Of a DNA stretch of 64,000 nucleotides, positions 48,391 through 52,973 are shown one piece after another. Location: assembly GCA_965204755.1 (NCBI GenBank), contig OZ242011.1:2240001-2304000 (forward strand), read 5' to 3'. The notes beneath the pieces are model-generated. The model had not been told where the DNA came from. It was given only the letters and a program-made list of their open reading frames with translations, and searched no databases. The DNA comes from Candidatus Marinacidobacterium sp. GTDB lineage: Bacteria > Acidobacteriota > Vicinamibacteria > Marinacidobacterales > Marinacidobacteraceae. The position numbers and the translations under genes were made by a program. Within the stretch, counting starts at the first letter, position 1, and every line of letters starts with the position of its first letter.

Positions 48391-48444
48391 GCCCCGTTGC
48401 GCTCCGCCCACCCTGTCCGATTCGCGGAATTCGAGGTGTTTTCC

Positions 48445-49530
48445 ATGCGCATCCTCCGCTCGCCCCGCGCGGTCCTCCTCGCCGGCGCCCTCGCCGGTTC
48501 GGCGGTGTTCGCCGCCGGCTGCGGCGGCTCGGCGGCCGGTTCCTCGCCCGCCGGGGAAGGGCCGATGGCTTCCGTCCTTCCCCCGACCGTCGAATCCTCG
48601 GTGCTCGGCGTGCTCGACGGCGAGGAGATCACTCTCGAGAGCGTCCCCGACCAGGATCGGTTCCAGTTGGCCAAACTGCGGACCGAGTACCTGACCGAAG
48701 CGCACGCCACGCTGGAGCGGATCGCGCTGCGCGCGGCGCGCGACCGGGTGCTCACCCGCGCCGCGGAGGCGAAGGGGATGACCCTGAACGACTATCTCGG
48801 CGCGGAAGTGGGGCCGCCGGAGGTGAGCGACGCCGAAGTCGAGCAGGTGTACCAGCGCAACATCAACCAGATGGGCGGGCGGCCGCTCGACCAGATCCGC
48901 GACCAACTGCGCGGCCAGATCGCCGAGCAGAAGTTCAACTGGTCGGTGGAGCGGGTCGCGGACGGCCTGCTCGGCGACGCCGAGTGGGACATGACCGTTC
49001 CCGCCTTCCGGGTCGAGATCGAAACCGACGGCCACGCCGCGGTGGGGCCGGCGGGCGCGCCGGTGGAACTCGTGGTGTTCTCGGATTTCGAGTGCCCCTA
49101 CTGCCGCCGCTTCAACACCAGCCTCGACCGGCTCCGCGAAGAGTTCCTCTCCGAGGTCCGGGTGGTCTTCCGGCACCACCCGCTGCGCAACATCCACCCG
49201 CGCGCCCAGAAGGCGGCGGAGGCCTCGCTCTGCGCCGGAGACCAGGGCAAGTTCTGGGAGTTCCACGACGCGCTCTGGACGGACGAGGACCTGTCGGCGG
49301 ACGCGCTGGACCGCCACGCTTCGGGGATCGGTCTCGACTCGGACACCTTCGGGGACTGCCTGAATTCCGGCCGCTACTACGAGCAGGTGGAAGCGGATGT
49401 GCAGGCCGCGCTCGGGCTCGGGCAGGGAGGGACCCCGGCGGTCTTCGTGAACGGCCGCTATGTGGGCGGCGCGATCTCGTTCGAGGACCTGAAGTCGCAG
49501 ATCGAACGCGAACTCGCCGAGGGCGACTAG
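48445..49530 (+). CDS. DsbA/thioredoxin-fold lipoprotein with an N-terminal helical extension
   Basis: Lipobox FAAGC, FSDFECPYC, FRHHPL, cis-Pro GTP; GAGG RBS before ATG 48445. Confidence 0.9.
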   Translation: MRILRSPRAVLLAGALAGSAVFAAGCGGSAAGSSPAGEGPMASVLPPTVESSVLGVLDGEEITLESVPDQDRFQLAKLRTEYLTEAHATLERIALRAARDRVLTRAAEAKGMTLNDYLGAEVGPPEVSDAEVEQVYQRNINQMGGRPLDQIRDQLRGQIAEQKFNWSVERVADGLLGDAEWDMTVPAFRVEIETDGHAAVGPAGAPVELVVFSDFECPYCRRFNTSLDRLREEFLSEVRVVFRHHPLRNIHPRAQKAAEASLCAGDQGKFWEFHDALWTDEDLSADALDRHASGIGLDSDTFGDCLNSGRYYEQVEADVQAALGLGQGGTPAVFVNGRYVGGAISFEDLKSQIERELAEGD

Positions 49531-49583
49531 CGAGCCCCGACCGGCGAGCCCCGACCAGCGAGCCCGATTGGCGAGCCCGACCC
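49530..49583 (+). repeat. Four degenerate 13-14-bp tandem repeats (GCGAGCCC(C)GA...)
   Basis: GCGAGCCCCGACCG, GCGAGCCCCGACCA, GCGAGCCCGATTG, GCGAGCCCGACCC. Confidence 0.75.
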
Positions 49584-49623: not shown

Positions 49624-50028
49624 ATGCCTGCCGCGACCACGCTCTCTCCCGAAGTCCGGGAATTCCTCGAAGCCCGGACTTTCGTCCACCTGGCCACCGT
49701 CCTGCCCGACGGGCGCCCGCAGGTCTCCCCGGTCTGGGTCGAACTCGACGGCGAGTCCATCGTCGTGAACTCGGCGGTGGGCCGGGTCAAGGACCGGAAC
49801 ATCCGCGCCGACGCCCGGGTGGCGCTCTCCGCCTGCCATCCGGACGACCCCTACCGCGCGGTGATGATCCGGGGCCGGGTGGTGGAAGTCACCGAGGAGG
49901 CCGCCGAGGAGGGCATAGACCGCCTCGCCCGGAAGTACCTGGGCTCCGACCGGTACGAATGGCGCCGCCCGGGAGAGGTGCGCGTGATCTACCGCATCCA
50001 ACCGGAAACCGTCGCCACGATCCCGTAG
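49624..50028 (+). CDS. PPOX-class (pyridoxamine 5'-phosphate oxidase-like) putative F420-dependent oxidoreductase
   Basis: LATVLPDGRPQVSPVW, KDRNIRADARVAL, LARKYLG, EVRVIYRI. Confidence 0.88.
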   Translation: MPAATTLSPEVREFLEARTFVHLATVLPDGRPQVSPVWVELDGESIVVNSAVGRVKDRNIRADARVALSACHPDDPYRAVMIRGRVVEVTEEAAEEGIDRLARKYLGSDRYEWRRPGEVRVIYRIQPETVATIP

Positions 50029-50068
50029 GGCCCCGGCACGGGGACCCCGAAGCCGTCGGCGGGTCGTC

Positions 50069-50449
50069 GTGCGCTATCGAGAGCCGCTCCCGAAGGGCTG
50101 CCCGCCGGCCGAGGCCGCGGAGATTCGGGAGCCGCGCTCCGTCTTTCGGTTGGTGCGAAGCGACCCGGCGACATCGGAGGACTTCCGTTCTCACAGGGAA
50201 GAGAAGGGGCCGGGAGTCGTCTTCCGCGGAGTGGACGAGTGCCGGGCCCGCGGCCTGTCCGTCTATGAGTCCCGCGAGAGCGCAGCGGGGGCGAGAAGAT
50301 TTCCTCATCTTCGCGGCCGCCGCGTCTGTCGGGTAGAACTCGCCGCCGGCGCGGGCAGCATCCGCCAGACCGGAGCCCCGCCCCACTACACTTGGTGGCC
50401 GCTCGCGGACTTCGACATTCTCGCCGCGAGCACCGTGGAGCCCCGATGA
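50069..50449 (+). CDS. Hypothetical protein, possible ADP-ribosyltransferase-like fold
   Basis: LPKGCPP...VFRLV...DFRS...CRARGLSVY...HYTWW pattern; the stop overlaps the next ATG (ATGA). The fold call is inference. Confidence 0.65.
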   Translation: MRYREPLPKGCPPAEAAEIREPRSVFRLVRSDPATSEDFRSHREEKGPGVVFRGVDECRARGLSVYESRESAAGARRFPHLRGRRVCRVELAAGAGSIRQTGAPPHYTWWPLADFDILAASTVEPR

Positions 50450-51609
50450 CCGCGACGAGGCGAATCCGCCATACGGCGACGCTCGCCTATTACGACGGTC
50501 CGTTGGTGTTCGAGGCCCGCGACGGCATCGGCGGCCACTACCTCGCCTCCGCGGCGGCGCGGGAGCCCGGCGAACCGGATGAATTCCTGCTGAGGGGCGT
50601 TTCGCCCTCGGCGCTTGCGGCGTTTCGTTTCGGTGCGGTGGACCTTCGCTCGGCGCTGCTCGACTCGCCGGACGCCGAGTGGTTCCTCGCGCGATTCGCG
50701 GACTCGGGAGAGGAGGACACACTGCTGCTGGAGCCCCAGGCGGGGCCGCTCGAAGGCAGTTCGCCGCTCCTCCCCGATTCCGGATTCTTCCTCCACGACG
50801 GTCCGGCCGAGAACGCGGTGGTGGAAGAGGCGAGAAGGCGGAACGCGCTCGTCGTGGAACTCGCCGCCAGTCCGCCGGAGGCTGCGAACGGCCACTGCAT
50901 GCGCGCGGCTGCCTTGGGCGGCCTGCTGACCGACTTCCAGACTCTGGTCACCGGGGCGCATCGCGCGGCGGCGAAGGGTGGGCGGCCGCCTCCGGGGAGC
51001 GAAGAGATGGATGTCGTCGTGCCCGCCGCACCCGGTTCGTTCCGGGTGGTTCTCGCCTCCGCCCATCCACCGGATGTCTTCGGCGGGAACTGGCTGACGC
51101 CCGCCTTCCGACAACTCGACGAAGTGTTCCGGCGGATCGAGGACCCCTCGGAGACCGTCGCCTTCCTGCGGGAGAGTCCGGGGCGGTTCGCGGGCGCCGC
51201 CGTGAAGTTCCTGAAGTCGGTCGCGGACAGTACGGACTTCCGGTACTCGTGGGCGGACTTCGACTCGAAGGAAGCCACGCGGCACTCGGTGCCGCGGCAC
51301 GCGGCCGCCCGCATCGTCGAGGCCGCCGCCGACTCCCCGGTCATCGACGCCGAGGAGACGGAAGAAGTGGAAGTGACCGGGGAGTTCCAGAAGTTCCACC
51401 GGGGGAACGGCGCCTGGGCGCTGCTGACCGGGGACGGGGCCGTCGTTGCGGGAACGCTCCGCCCCGAAGGGCCCGGTCTCGACGGGCTGGTCGTCGGCGG
51501 CCGGTACCGGTTCGTCTGCGAAGAGCGGGTCGAGGCGGTCAGCGTCAGCAGGCGACGACCTCCGAGGCGCTACCTCGTTCGCCACGAGCCGGCCGCCGAC
51601 GAGTCCTGA
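50446..51609 (+). CDS. Hypothetical multidomain protein with an N-terminal YYDGP-motif (DUF6575-like) domain
   Basis: ATG 50446 coupled to the upstream gene; LAYYDGPLVFEARD...HYL...GAVDLRSAL N-terminus, a helical middle with GSFRVVL and a beta-rich C-terminus. Protein-like composition, unlike the shadow ORFs. Confidence 0.75.
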   Translation: MTATRRIRHTATLAYYDGPLVFEARDGIGGHYLASAAAREPGEPDEFLLRGVSPSALAAFRFGAVDLRSALLDSPDAEWFLARFADSGEEDTLLLEPQAGPLEGSSPLLPDSGFFLHDGPAENAVVEEARRRNALVVELAASPPEAANGHCMRAAALGGLLTDFQTLVTGAHRAAAKGGRPPPGSEEMDVVVPAAPGSFRVVLASAHPPDVFGGNWLTPAFRQLDEVFRRIEDPSETVAFLRESPGRFAGAAVKFLKSVADSTDFRYSWADFDSKEATRHSVPRHAAARIVEAAADSPVIDAEETEEVEVTGEFQKFHRGNGAWALLTGDGAVVAGTLRPEGPGLDGLVVGGRYRFVCEERVEAVSVSRRRPPRRYLVRHEPAADES

Positions 51610-51684
51610 GGCGGGTCTCGCCGGCGCGGCGACGGGCCGCGGGGCCTCTCCGGCGACTGATCGCCGCGTTCCCTTCGCCCGCAG

Positions 51685-51838
51685 GAAAGACACAGGCTCG
51701 CGGGTCGAAAGACACAGGCTCGCGGGCGGAAAGACACAGGCTCGCCGGTCGAAAGACACAGGCTCGCGGGCGGAAAGACACAGGCTCGCCGGTCGAAAGA
51801 CACAGGCTCGCCCGTGGAAAGACACAGGCTCGCGAGAG
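51685..51838 (+). repeat. Seven tandem 22-bp direct repeats: invariant GAAAGACACAGGCTCGC plus 5 variable nt
   Basis: Units start at 51685, 51707, 51729, 51751, 51773, 51795 and 51817. Variable parts: GGGTC, GGGCG, CGGTC, GGGCG, CGGTC, CCGTG, GAGAG. Confidence 0.95.
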
Positions 51839-52063
51839 TCGCGGGTCGTTCGGCAGCCCGCGCCGGGCTTCCGGGCGAAGCGCTTGGGCCTCCGGACTCT
51901 CCCGGGGGTGTTCCTTCGACCCGCCGAGGCTCCTTCCTCGCGGTCCGGGACGGAATTCAGCCCCGTCGGACTCCCGGACAGCGCCTTGGAGCCGCTCCCC
52001 GGAGCGCCCGCCCCACGGCCGTTCTTACCATGTAAATCGAATAAAATAAAGGAGTTATGGCAT

Positions 52064-52208
52064 AAAGACACAGGTTGAGACACAGGCTCACGGTCCAAAG
52101 ACACAGGCTAAAGACACAGGCTAAAGACACAGGCTCGGCAGGAAAGACACAGGCTAAAGACACAGGCTCGGCAGGAAAGACACAGGCTCGCCTCGAAAGA
52201 CACAGGCT
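52064..52208 (+). repeat. Second array: nine copies of AAAGACACAGGCT at 13- and 20-bp periods
   Basis: Copies at about 52064, 52077, 52097, 52110, 52123, 52143, 52156, 52176 and 52196 (first two slightly variant). Linkers are none, CACGGTCC, CGGCAGG or CGCCTCG. Confidence 0.93.
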
Positions 52209-52292
52209 CCGCCACCCCGGGAACGGGCCGCGCGACCGACTCCCGCCGCCGCGCCGCAGAACCCCTCCCCATCCGATCTCGACCGGCGAGTC

Positions 52293-52973
52293 TCAGCCCG
52301 GGATGTCGAGCACGGAACCCGTCATCGCGACAGGGGCTTCCGCGCCCAACCACGCGATGGCGGCGGCGACGGTCTCCGCCGAGGCGCGCGGCTTCGCCGC
52401 GGGGAGCGCGGCCCGGTAAGTCGCCGTGTCCACCGAACCGGGGCGGACGGCGAAGACCGCGATCCCCGAGGGACGGGTCTCCGCCGCCAGCGCCTTGGTG
52501 AACCCGACCAGCCCCTCCTTCGCCGCTCCGTAGGCGGAGAGTCCGGCGGCGCCGAGCCGGGCGGTGAGCGAGGCCACATTCACGATCCGCCCGCTGCCCC
52601 GCCGCCGCATCCCCGGCAGGGCGGCCCGGGTCGTCAGGAACGCCGCCTTGAGGTTCACCGCGATCATCCGGTCGAAGTCCTCGTCCGTCGTGTCCGTGAC
52701 CGGAGCGCGAAACGCGGCGCCGGCGGCGTTCACCACCAACTGCAACGGGCCCAGCCGCCGTTCGGTCTGTTCCACCAACTCGGCGGCCTGGCCGGGGGCG
52801 GCGACATCCGCGGGCGCCGTGAAGGCGTAGCCGCCGGACTCGCGGATGCGGTTCCCGACGCTCACCAGTCCCATCGGCCGCCGCGCCGCCAGTCCGAGAG
52901 CGAACCCGCGCCGGGCGAGCGCGAGCGCGGCCGCTTCGCCGATCCCCCGGCTCGCCCCGGTGACGAGCGCCAC
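52293..52973 (-). CDS. Short-chain dehydrogenase/reductase
   Basis: TGASRGIG, VNAAG, YGAAK, RPGSVDT. Start uncertain and may extend to ~53048. Confidence 0.88.
   Translation of the reverse strand: MALVTGASRGIGEAAALALARRGFALGLAARRPMGLVSVGNRIRESGGYAFTAPADVAAPGQAAELVEQTERRLGPLQLVVNAAGAAFRAPVTDTTDEDFDRMIAVNLKAAFLTTRAALPGMRRRGSGRIVNVASLTARLGAAGLSAYGAAKEGLVGFTKALAAETRPSGIAVFAVRPGSVDTATYRAALPAAKPRASAETVAAAIAWLGAEAPVAMTGSVLDIPG

Follow-up and report, generated by a model that had tools for sequence, protein, structure and literature searches.

Between a PNPOx-family gene (PF01243, E 2.7e-19) and an SDR gene (PF00106, E 6.4e-51; both by Pfam scan), the genome of Candidatus Marinacidobacterium sp. (3.98 Mb, 71.7% G+C, 89% complete by marker genes) carries a block that most likely comprises two independent things, a gene pair and a repeat element. 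Our main reading, given a probability of roughly 0.6, is that the pair represents a PD-T4-10-type module and that the adjoining arrays form an orphan element whose units are the sites of a winged-helix protein. Membership of the arrays in the gene-pair system is not supported: homologous pairs lack them, and their motif recurs at four other loci with unrelated neighbors, two of the three outcomes that the original prediction named as refuting it; the striking array beside a toxin-like pair does not constitute a new three-part defense system here. The original prediction, made on the whole 64-kb stretch of DNA analyzed (the window), described two ATGA-coupled genes followed by repeats between PPOX and SDR genes, an arrangement borne out by the open reading frames and Pfam matches, and it reported no Rep, integrase, partition or Cas gene nearby; none occurs among the neighbors examined.

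Table 1. Features of the block, in window positions.
Feature	Position	Strand	Basis
Gene 1, small protein of predicted ART/RES-like fold, PD-T4-10_A relative	50069..50449	+	126 aa, ORF
Gene 2, DUF6575-like N-terminal domain (YYDGP), helical middle, predicted C-terminal OB-fold	50446..51609	+	387 aa, ORF
Left flank of element, imperfect direct repeat of 52210-52270	51618..51679	+	local alignment
Array 1, 7 units GAAAGACACAGGCTCGC + 5 variable nt, 22-bp period	51684..51834	+	TRF, motif count
G+C-rich spacer, CCGGAGCGC box common to other elements	51835..52018	+	sequence
AT-rich box ending AAGGAGTTA, possible promoter or bending site	52019..52062	+	A+T content, conservation
Array 2, 9 units AAAGACACAGGCT, 12-21 bp spacing	52063..52209	+	TRF, motif count
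Right flank, CCCGGGAACGGG hairpin-capable end, imperfect direct repeat of 51618-51679	52210..52270	+	

The gene pair and its relatives

A homolog of gene 1 is present at 61 of 66 gene 2 loci, which span many phyla, and 60 of the 61 homologs lie directly upstream of gene 2; in the window the two genes overlap by ATGA (50446-50449). When sequence downstream of gene 2 was scanned with TRF at the 66 loci, no comparable array was found at any of them. At two of the homologous loci, L097 and L098, TRF did report repeats of long period (262 bp x 3.5; 120 bp x 8.8), which lie 1.2 kb or more beyond gene 2, and an apparent multi-array among the homologous loci was rejected as a pentapeptide-repeat gene. 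In a sister species of the same genus (G001), gene 1 and gene 2 lie between the PNPOx and SDR orthologs, and this orthologous locus has no array, with just 33 nt after gene 2. Repeat arrays beside homologs, the check proposed with the original prediction, were not encountered in comparable form at either the 66 loci or the sister locus, and its fallback of a chance juxtaposition is the better reading. The claim of a defense or addiction module remains plausible for the gene pair, from its PD-T4-10 profile matches, and is not upheld for the arrays as part of it.

The gene 1 product matches the PADLOC profile PD-T4-10_A (PDLC04023) at E 2.1e-7 (28.8 bits) over nearly its full length, with residues 10-123 on profile positions 24-143 of 148, and at E 6.9e-6 in a genome-wide profile scan; the profile is not very specific, since it also has matches in 6 of 14 control genomes. 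Gene 1 has no Pfam RES or ART match, and an NCBIfam search gave nothing meaningful. Its predicted fold is ART-like, as the original prediction had it, with middling match scores: the leading Foldseek and VIA rows for the AF2 model (pLDDT 94.1) are almost exclusively ART-fold proteins, the best Foldseek row being a RES toxin (E 0.17, TM 0.45; none at E <= 0.001) and the best VIA match KptA (Z 6.8, rmsd 3.0, 88 aligned residues). ADP-ribosyltransferase/RES proteins have a catalytic triad (R-S-E, H-Y-E or R-E-S) in the NAD cleft. Across 38 sequences of gene 1 and its relatives R27, E57, S64, C58, C87 and H106 are invariant, and C11 is found in at least 90%.

Gene 2 falls short of the cut-off for PF20215 (E 0.031), a family that is precomputed on many of 75 gene 2 homologs. 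Against the PD-T4-10_B profile the window's gene 2 has no match at E <= 1, nor at E <= 10; of 34 relatives, 12 match this profile weakly (best E 1.9e-4) and 19 match PDC-M63B (best E 1.9e-6). An NCBIfam search with gene 2 gave nothing meaningful, and its profile returned only chance or low-complexity rows from PDB sequences. Structural matches of the OB-fold predicted in the AF2 model (pLDDT 83.5) are RPA, IF1 and CspA (prob 1.0, E 0.008-0.05).

A model of the two proteins in complex reached an ipSAE of 0.84, a level seen in 58 of 80 solved complexes and in 2 of 110 mismatched pairs, while the best of three controls gave 0.00; at least 74% of contacts are common to runs, and partner pLDDT is at least 86. 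The model supports binding of the two proteins to each other and brings gene 2's invariant YYDGP loop up against the conserved R27/S64 face of its partner, gene 1. Collectively, from its sequence relationships, the pair looks like a conserved two-gene module of the PD-T4-10 toxin-antitoxin/abortive-infection type, plausibly as a distant relative, and by analogy we infer that gene 2 would encode the toxic effector and gene 1 its neutralizer. The pair extends the barely characterized PD-T4-10 to many phyla and provides structural leads, namely a predicted ART/RES-like A, a predicted C-terminal OB-fold in B and a YYDGP loop predicted on the conserved face of A, which raise the question of whether A neutralizes B through binding alone or through modification.

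The repeat element in the window, the genome and a sister species

The 64-kb window contains 16 copies of the motif AGACACAGG, always on the + strand, seven at 51688-51828 and nine at 52066-52206, against a chance expectation of 0.17 (sd 0.38; 0 of 100 shuffles got to 16). Motif counts therefore agree with the original description of 16 same-orientation copies in two arrays, absent from the rest of the window, and the AT-rich tract noted between them is real, with at least 70% A+T across 52019-52073, among just 21 such 40-bp regions genome-wide. The first full repeat unit begins 75 nt after the gene 2 stop, and the copies follow at spacings of 22 (six times), 246, 12, 21, 13, 13, 20, 13, 20 and 20; TRF resolves array 1 as a 22-bp period x 6.8 copies (89% matches) and array 2 as mixed periods of 13/20/33/46 bp. 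The spacer begins with the hairpin-capable CTCGCGAGAGTCGCGGG (MFE fold of 51670-51900), and the AT-rich box fits the IHF consensus WATCAANNNNTTR with one mismatch at 52045-52057. A CRISPR array would come with cas genes and with repeats that are identical, about 24-48 nt long and interspersed with unique spacers of comparable length; this identity was ruled out by the 13-nt unit, the 0-9 nt between units and the lack of cas among the neighbors examined.

Imperfect direct repeats surround the insert, their local alignment scoring 41 vs 25.9 +/- 4.4 in 1000 shuffles (4 of 1000 reach 41), and the empty site of the sister species has a single flank copy, CCGGAACGGGCC. Near-identical strains from two studies retain the element at the window locus, as seen in DNA contigs of four runs. 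The short-read contigs of those runs break inside the arrays.

A search of the whole genome, which the original prediction had suggested for the motif, returned AAAGACACAGGCT 42 times at five loci (control pattern 0), four of them beside unrelated genes: a DUF1156-methyltransferase; Era and a metalloprotease-like ORF; DUF5916 and a winged-helix gene; and a PDDEXK_4 gene. All five loci share a layout of array, spacer of about 200 bp, AT-rich box and array, with the box 5-6 nt before array 2 in 5/5 elements, and copy number and spacing differ at every one of them. Each element lies within about 2.2 kb of restriction, defense or toxin-antitoxin-like genes, and the elements may be linked to defense islands. 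Most element sites fall between convergent genes, and array 2 runs toward the 3' end of a convergent gene in elements A, B, D and E, four of the five. The bipartite layout also recurs with other motif families at nine more loci in the genome; neighbor orientation at the 14 array loci was called by a crude GC3-based procedure that is too noisy to use.

Comparison of the source genome with the sister species demonstrated that elements are present or absent at otherwise collinear sites, so that orphan array copies come and go between sister species, and the sister genome contains blocks of the local motif variants CACATG, CACCTG and CACAGG. Locus C is the sole element of the five kept at the orthologous sister site (L106), where the motif and AT box are conserved and the spacer has diverged except for short boxes. 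Metagenomic orthologs keep the motif core, and ORFs called there run into the arrays (KDTG/KTQG translations). Scans for the motif pair found 11 loci in a viral collection and at least 120 in a metagenome collection; the best multi-copy matches from the former were unrelated sequences, as were the best multi-copy matches listed from the latter, and across both listings these best matches have 21-60% G+C.

A winged-helix protein as candidate partner of the arrays

The element at locus C ends about 110 nt ahead of the start of a gene (genome positions 1047266-1048327) for a protein of 354 aa in which a long Pro-rich linker joins a helical N-terminal domain to what is, from sub-threshold matches (Pfam Fic-like_C, E 0.0016-0.06; Protein Atlas Fic-like_C, 0.82, weak), a probable C-terminal winged helix. 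The source genome encodes two paralogs: the gene for one begins about 100 nt after an array of GAATTGTGTATAG (the fam2 locus 2045k), so that arrays lie some 100-110 nt upstream of winged-helix genes at both this locus and locus C, and 80 nt separate the end of the other gene from a 2-kb GGATCGA-type array. Similarly, in the sister species the winged-helix ortholog is beside its array, and 1.2 kb lie between a second paralog and a 19-bp array of at least 108 copies. Elsewhere in the family, arrays (TRF score >= 100) occur at 21 of 27 winged-helix gene loci from other genera vs 0 of 20 control windows taken at a distance of 50-100 kb; the Fisher value of 2.4e-8 overstates the evidence, because the 27 loci are related by descent. 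The array motif in these genera changes from paralog to paralog, with up to seven paralogs per genome and an own motif for each. In genus g2 the order is arrays, AT-rich box, start codon, which favors a DNA-level over an RNA-level role, and one g2 genome has an orphan array of a gene-linked motif.

Other searches returned little. NCBIfam gave nothing meaningful for the winged-helix protein, its profile drew only chance or low-complexity rows from PDB sequences, and a word-index homolog search recovered 17 close relatives only. A Pfam scan of the neighbors of locus C identified DUF5916, a DNA methylase and EcoRII only, with no NTPase or other partner, and the window element has no winged-helix gene beside it.

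The window arrays are most likely an orphan predicted binding locus of a winged-helix protein encoded elsewhere, the link being positional and comparative, and the suggestion that they are protein-binding sites is in this sense probably right. The founding copy would be that at locus C, directly upstream of the winged-helix gene, and since paralogs are accompanied by arrays of different motif, the AAAGACACAGGCT units are its putative binding sites. The stretch of about 600 bp at 51618-52270 would then represent one orphan copy of a bipartite repeat element specific to the genus, either gained in the source lineage or lost in the sister species within a short gap between convergent genes. The winged-helix protein may coat the arrays cooperatively, control its own promoter at the founding copy, and be recruited or titrated by the orphan copies, a logic like that of plasmid centromere/operator arrays (parC-ParR, tubC-TubR) but dispersed over the chromosome.

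A more tentative proposal, which we consider possible but doubtful, is that the up to seven paralogs per genome constitute an expanding and so far undescribed set of address systems in this bacterial family, in which own-motif arrays at promoter and orphan sites silence, insulate or tether foreign genes. Here the protein, with its helical N-domain, a long Pro-rich linker taken to be disordered and a winged helix, would form coats nucleated by the arrays on neighboring foreign genes, as a sequence-addressed counterpart of H-NS/Lsr2-type xenogeneic silencing or ParB-parS nucleation. Orphan arrays would move or arise fast and, in this genome, adjoin horizontally acquired defense genes, and the window array would be a functional control element acquired after the PD-T4-10-like pair.

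That the two genes and the arrays make up one defense or addiction system, with the arrays as decoy or binding sites or as a toxin-regulating RNA, is very improbable. The arrays do begin close behind gene 2 on the same strand and are kept there in the near-identical strains, the predicted OB-fold could bind nucleic acid, and all five elements are near defense-like genes; against this, the sister species has the pair at the same site without arrays, the 66 homologous loci lack a comparable one, the element sits beside unrelated genes elsewhere, the arrays have their own candidate partner in the winged-helix protein, and they are downstream of the genes with units of 13-22 nt, as opposed to about 36 nt for ToxI. 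We also regard as unlikely a small-RNA gene in which the AT-rich box serves as promoter for array 2, whose transcript would be an unstructured repetitive RNA that sponges an RNA-binding protein or is antisense to the convergent gene downstream. The invariable position of the box immediately before array 2, the hairpin-capable sequences after both arrays, the orientation of array 2 in elements A, B, D and E, and the folding of array 2 as RNA, worse than in 200 of 200 shuffles (z +2.74) and fitting a selected single-stranded RNA, would all suit such a gene; however, lack of structure follows by construction for a direct repeat without self-complementarity, no AT box accompanies array 1, and the g2 arrays would not be transcribed from the box because they lie upstream of it. 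Moreover, a scan of 49900-52500 for sigma-70 promoters and intrinsic terminators found 0 sites, Rfam at permissive thresholds gave nothing in the window block and only tRNA and chance rows at the other four loci, with no family match to their arrays, and CsrA (PF02599) was not found in the genome, which is 89% complete.

Selfish or neutral minisatellite-like DNA that spreads into permissive gaps between genes, expands by slippage and has no function at the window locus, and for which the winged-helix link would be a matter of origin, as copies of that promoter region, and not of use, seems to us just as unlikely as a small RNA. Presence and absence between the sister species, copy number and spacing that vary everywhere, the variant blocks in the sister genome, the direct repeats flanking the insert and the preference for sites between convergent genes all fit such DNA, whereas conservation of the motif core in two species and in metagenomic orthologs, of the AT box and layout while the spacer diverges, and of the element in strains from two studies speaks against it; this account is compatible with our best explanation and not opposed to it. 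Least probable of all is that the element serves as an iteron-type replication origin, with iterons on either side of an AT-rich unwinding region, or survives from such an origin in an integrated plasmid or phage satellite. The 22-bp x 7 array, the AT-rich box and the IHF-like site resemble iteron origins, but no Rep, primase, integrase or partition gene was seen next to any of the five loci, dnaA at 1.82 Mb is far from all five copies on this one chromosome, and the layout recurs with other motifs. The cumulative GC skew of the genome is irregular and uninformative on this point.

For the favored interpretation of the units as sites of the winged-helix protein, the accessible portions of the literature on iteron-like or intergenic chromosomal arrays with a winged-helix protein describe no such arrays, and genome-wide families of bipartite short-motif arrays tied to paralogous winged-helix proteins appear undescribed. 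If the proteins bind the arrays, this would be a tractable natural system for the origin of new protein-DNA specificities and a model for the spread of sequence-specific nucleation sites over a bacterial chromosome.

Comparison with known systems

PD-T4-10 consists of two overlapping ORFs, a toxic B and a neutralizing A, and provides abortive-infection defense against T-even phages (PMC9519451), in a study that names DUF6575 among new defense domains (PMC9519451, Vassallo et al., 2022). In the accessible text of that study neither A nor B has a predicted function (PMC9519451), so the present analysis adds a predicted ART-like fold for A and a predicted OB-fold for B. The pair resembles PD-T4-10 in its overlapping small A followed by a B of about 350-390 aa, in the match of gene 1 to the A profile and in the matches of gene 2 relatives to B and PDC-M63B. 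It differs as a distant relative from a 72% G+C bacterium and not E. coli, with a gene 2 that misses the B profile.

RES toxins, which are RES-domain proteins of ART fold, are the second point of reference, although the small protein of PD-T4-10 is the neutralizer and not the toxin (PMC9519451). The gene 1 model resembles the RES-Xre/ParST/MbcTA systems in its matches to 6gw6/9r35 (E 0.17-0.29) and to VPA0770 (Z 5.7), ParT (Z 4.7) and MbcT (Z 3.8), and has invariant R, E and S residues in that order. In contrast to these systems, gene 1 has no Pfam RES match, its partner is neither Xre/HTH nor a small antitoxin, and the ART-like gene comes before its partner, the reverse of their gene order.

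Type III toxin-antitoxin systems (ToxIN) have their array upstream of the toxin gene, ToxI units are about 36 nt, and the repeat RNA is processed and bound by the toxin. The window shares with them a tandem array of short direct repeats by a putative toxin gene on the same strand; the likeness drawn in the original prediction fails on array position (downstream), unit length (13-22 nt) and co-conservation, since the array does not accompany the genes and is found at four other loci without them.

R1 parC-ParR and pBtoxis tubC-TubR are plasmid centromere/operator arrays with small DNA-binding proteins, of which TubR is a winged-helix protein. Like these, the repeat clusters of locus C flank a promoter-like AT-rich box upstream of a putative binder gene, and the arrays here are phased at 22 or 32 bp. 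Unlike them, the arrays are scattered over a chromosome and include orphan copies, the winged-helix protein is far larger and has a long Pro-rich linker, up to seven paralogs per genome each have their own motif, and no ParM, TubZ or ParA gene adjoins locus C; the centromere analogy is thus incomplete, for want of an NTPase or partner gene by the founding copy. Finally, pneumococcal BOX elements and mycobacterial MIRUs are modular intergenic repeats, and the elements described here are likewise intergenic, modular, variable in copy number and present or absent between close relatives, but their units are far shorter, they have a bipartite layout around an AT-rich box, and their arrays are consistently linked to one protein family.

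Array elements in the window and across the genome

Between a PNPOx-family gene and an SDR gene on the opposite strand, the ART-like gene 1 and the YYDGP/DUF6575-like gene 2 are accompanied by 16 copies of AGACACAGG, all on the plus strand and grouped in two arrays (7 + 9). With a chance expectation in the window of 0.17 and a count of 16 reached by none of 100 shuffles, the motif count bears out the original observation of two same-strand arrays beside ATGA-coupled genes. Units repeat strictly every 22 bp in array 1 (TRF: 6.8 copies at 89% matches), and those of array 2 are spaced 12–21 bp apart. The spacer ends in an AT-rich box; the whole genome (G000; 3.98 Mb, 71.7% G+C) has only 21 regions that reach 70% A+T per 40 bp, this box among them. 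Another of the 21, at 3407516–3407591, ends in TTATCCACA, a DnaA-box-like 9-mer; dnaA itself, however, is at 1.82 Mb, and the curve of cumulative GC skew is irregular. Elsewhere in the window, a 14-nt tandem repeat (GCGAGCCCCGACCG, 3.9 copies, 49524–49582) straddles the stop of a DsbA-like gene (48397–49530).

A whole-genome motif count placed 42 copies of AAAGACACAGGCT at five loci (A–E; control pattern, 0), and 52 of the 72 genome matches to GACACAGG fall inside these clusters. All five share one layout, consisting of an array, a G+C-rich spacer of ~200 bp, an AT-rich box, 5–6 nt and a second array, with uniform unit orientation within each element and a box ending in AAGGA(G/C)TTA or a close variant. 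Read by eye, the boxes differ from the IHF consensus, WATCAANNNNTTR, by 0–2 mismatches. The motif recurs at four loci besides the window, with differing, unrelated neighbors, which argues against the arrays being part of the gene pair. Element A lies next to a DUF1156-methyltransferase gene, of which the sister species of the same genus (G001) carries at least 15 paralogous copies, full or partial, at 70–84% nucleotide identity (for example, 508957–511774, 692523–695428 and 1146649–1149461). At another locus the neighbors are Era and an ORF resembling a metalloprotease, and 2 kb away lies a YgjP/HsdR-like pair. Locus C has a DUF5916 gene beside it, as well as a 354-aa gene after which come Dcm and EcoRII, and element E is next to a PDDEXK_4 gene accompanied by an HTH gene and a tRNA. 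Defence-like genes are found within about 2.2 kb of all five elements, a closeness that could reflect only shared accumulation in variable regions.

Coordinates of the gene pair, array elements and associated repeats
Feature	Sequence	Position	Strand	Remarks
Gene 1	Window	50069–50449	+	126 aa; ATGA overlap with gene 2
Gene 2	Window	50446–51609	+	387 aa; ATGA overlap with gene 1
AT-rich box	Window	52019–52073		Spacer end; at least 70% A+T per 40 bp
Gene-2 homologue (L020/L022)	G001:C1	561593–562731		Frameshift after about residue 253; gene 1 intact
354-aa gene	G000	1047266–1048327		Starts about 110 nt after the end of locus C
GAATTGTGTATAG(C/G)T loci	G000	357896–358244, 756033–756432, 1207952–1208351, 1659925–1660362, 2045501–2045919, 2895437–2895814, 2970762–2971135, 3119120–3119628, 3494177–3494709
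GGATCGA(G/C)CCCC arrays	G000	339974–341756, 2780725–2782397, 2587848–2589887, 755749–756000
CCCCGCTTTCGTGGAC copies	G000	245998, 358270, 755738, 1207914, 2895836, 2970755
GCGYAARRGTYGGTGTCYC doublets	G000	585888/585913, 2970663/2970688, 3119684/3119709		Reverse-complement variant near 358300
Element E insertion	G000	3355348–3357240		Empty counterpart G001:C1:2926597–2927014

The gene pair and its homologues

In G001, homologues of the two genes likewise lie between the PNPOx and SDR orthologues. These orthologues have 78–86% nucleotide identity, whereas the pair itself (63% G+C) is only ~66% identical to that of the window; at this site the gene-2 and SDR stops are just 33 nt apart. We identified 75 homologues of gene 2 of about 380 aa, every one unnamed or annotated as hypothetical. 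A gene-1 homologue is present at 61 of 66 gene-2 loci from named MAGs of many phyla, directly upstream in 60; of the five loci with no gene-1 match, one has just 211 nt of upstream sequence. The original prediction joined gene 1, gene 2 and the arrays in one three-part defence or addiction system, and arrays were looked for beside homologous pairs: no multi-copy short-motif array lies 3' of gene 2 at any of the 66 loci (TRF), nor is there an array at the orthologous G001 site. Two of the 66 loci have long-period repeats at least 1.2 kb from gene 2 (TRF). Several small arrays, present at a single one of the 66 loci, correspond to a pentapeptide-repeat gene on the opposite strand. The lack of arrays beside homologous pairs and the recurrence of the motif next to unrelated genes are two of the three outcomes named with the original prediction as refuting it. 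The arrays are independent of the gene pair, and we find no support for the proposed three-part system.

Gene 1 matches the PADLOC profile PD-T4-10_A over nearly its full length (E 2.1e-7). Gene 2 of the window does not reach the PD-T4-10_B profile; among its 34 aligned relatives, 12 match PD-T4-10_B (best 1.9e-4) and 19 the candidate family PDC-M63B (best 1.9e-6). In the study that describes it (Vassallo et al., 2022; PMC9519451), PD-T4-10 consists of two overlapping ORFs without predicted function, of which B is toxic and A, which could not be deleted, neutralizes B, and it confers abortive-infection protection against T-even phages; the same study lists DUF6575 among new defence domains.

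The predicted fold of gene 1 (pLDDT 94.1) has RES toxins, tankyrase, Tpt1/KptA and a pertussis-like A subunit as its top Foldseek rows, none at E ≤ 0.001 (best E 0.17, TM 0.45). A structure search independent of Foldseek returned almost exclusively ART-fold proteins (Z scores: KptA 6.8, Scabin 5.8, a RES toxin 5.7, diphtheria toxin 5.4, ParT 4.7), so that the fold is fairly called "ART-like", as in the original observation, although the scores are middling. R27, E57, S64, C58, C87 and H106 do not vary across 38 sequences, at least 90% of which also have C11. Gene 2 (pLDDT 83.5) is predicted to end in a C-terminal OB-fold matching RPA, IF1 and CspA (probability 1.0, E 0.008–0.05, about 80–90 columns). 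A model of the gene 1–gene 2 complex scored 0.84, against 0.00 for the best of three controls, a mark that 58 of 80 solved complexes attained, as did 2 of 110 mismatched pairs; its runs have at least 74% of contacts in common, with partner pLDDT of at least 86. The modeled interface places gene-2 residues 9–117, including Y16 and D17 of YYDGP, against gene-1 residues 28, 41–64, 74–82 and 101–106. The model supports binding between the two proteins, and the predicted complex fits a toxin-antitoxin pair, in which the toxic partner would be assigned solely by analogy with published PD-T4-10. The pair appears to be a new and distant representative of a known kind of defence toxin-antitoxin system and yields new structural leads.

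A putative winged-helix protein family linked to the arrays

Downstream of locus C, the 354-aa gene encodes a protein whose conserved, helical N-terminal region is joined by a long Pro-rich linker to a putative winged helix at the C-terminus, an assignment that is sub-threshold (Pfam Fic-like_C, E 0.0016–0.06; Atlas leads, 0.82). Of two further paralogues in G000, one starts about 100 nt 3' of a GAATTGTGTATAG array, and a 2-kb GGATCGA-type array lies 80 nt from the end of the other. In G001, the orthologue adjoins its array and 1.2 kb separate a second paralogue from a 19-bp array (at least 108 copies), so that three of three genes in G000 and two of two in G001 adjoin arrays, one per motif family. 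The family occurs in 20 of 55 genomes of the order, with up to seven copies per genome; it is present in 19 of 27 other genomes of the same taxonomic family and in 0 of 27 from the two other families. Outside the genus, 21 of 27 loci of this gene carry a tandem array (TRF score ≥100, period 12–70, at least 2.5 copies), compared with 0 of 20 control windows 50–100 kb away in the same genomes (Fisher 2.4e-8, which overstates the evidence because the 27 loci are related by descent). Array motifs differ among paralogues of one genome and recur between genomes. In another genus of the family, arrays (32-bp period, at least 12 copies) lie upstream of an AT-rich box preceding the start codon, and one of its genomes has an additional orphan array of the gene-linked motif. 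Called ORFs of some metagenomic orthologues extend into arrays, read as KDTG/KTQG, indicating that arrays precede the gene there too. The arrays are tightly linked to this one protein family.

A whole-genome TRF scan of G000 placed the AAAGACACAGGCT element as one family among several. Nine GAATTGTGTATAG(C/G)T loci, which hold 102 of 102 core matches, have the same bipartite layout (4–6 units, a spacer of roughly 100–290 bp, then 4–9 units), and one of the nine, at 2045k, precedes a paralogue of the winged-helix gene. GGATCGA(G/C)CCCC is repeated in very long arrays of non-coding DNA. One reaches the maximum of 116 copies, at a 15-bp period; others show 121-bp higher-order periods that include a perfect palindrome, ATCGAGCCCC-TTTT-GGGGCTCGAT. 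Three AAAGACACAGGCT elements have the motif in their spacers as well. Each of the six genome copies of the 16-nt CCCCGCTTTCGTGGAC sits at an array-element edge, outward-facing on the downstream side and inward-reversed upstream, as for terminal inverted repeats, but none of the elements carries the two together. A ~20-nt repeat, GCGYAARRGTYGGTGTCYC, occurs as doublets beside three or four array loci in G000; these doublets could be mobile-element ends. Separately, G001:C1:133536–135321 (L013/L105) holds about 50 units of ~34-bp period, each comprising AAAGACACAGGG and a GC hairpin with compensatory changes, followed by a promoter-like AT-rich stretch (TTGACA); its flanks are non-syntenic with G000.

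Turnover of the elements and a proposed role

Tandem ACACAGG arrays were detected in two of the 55 genomes of the order, G000 and G001, many of the 55 being fragmented assemblies from which repeats may be missing. Locus C is the sole element common to both species, with the motif and the AATCAAnGAnTTA box kept and the spacer diverged. At its sites corresponding by orthology to loci A, B and E, G001 has no arrays, and it has elements at two sites that are empty in G000. Blocks of CACATG and CACCTG variants are also present in the G001 arrays. Element E and its PDDEXK_4 gene form a ~2-kb insertion, absent from G001, beside a tRNA gene. Imperfect direct repeats flank the inserts: one G001 pair is 13 bp long and includes the upstream gene's stop codon, and the window element lies between repeats at 51618–51679 and 52210–52270 (score 41 vs. 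25.9 ± 4.4 in shuffles, reached by 4 of 1000). Sequencing runs from two studies show the element retained at the window locus in near-identical strains. Orphan copies, which lack the adjacent winged-helix gene, turn over, and the founding copy at locus C is conserved.

The window arrays represent one orphan copy within an array-plus-protein family that is apparently undescribed; searches of the literature on PD-T4-10, DUF6575 and iteron-like or winged-helix topics yielded no description of such arrays. We infer that the array units are DNA sites for the winged-helix protein, which would coat the arrays and control its own expression at the founding copy, while the orphan arrays would recruit or titrate it. 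Less probably, the arrays act at the RNA level: array 2, taken as RNA, folds worse than 200 of 200 shuffles (z +2.74); however, no promoter, terminator or Rfam family was found for them, and no CsrA gene was found in G000. As for the proposed DNA sites, although no motor gene adjoins locus C, unlike in parC-ParR and tubC-TubR, the layout of an element beside a winged-helix gene likens it to both of these systems.
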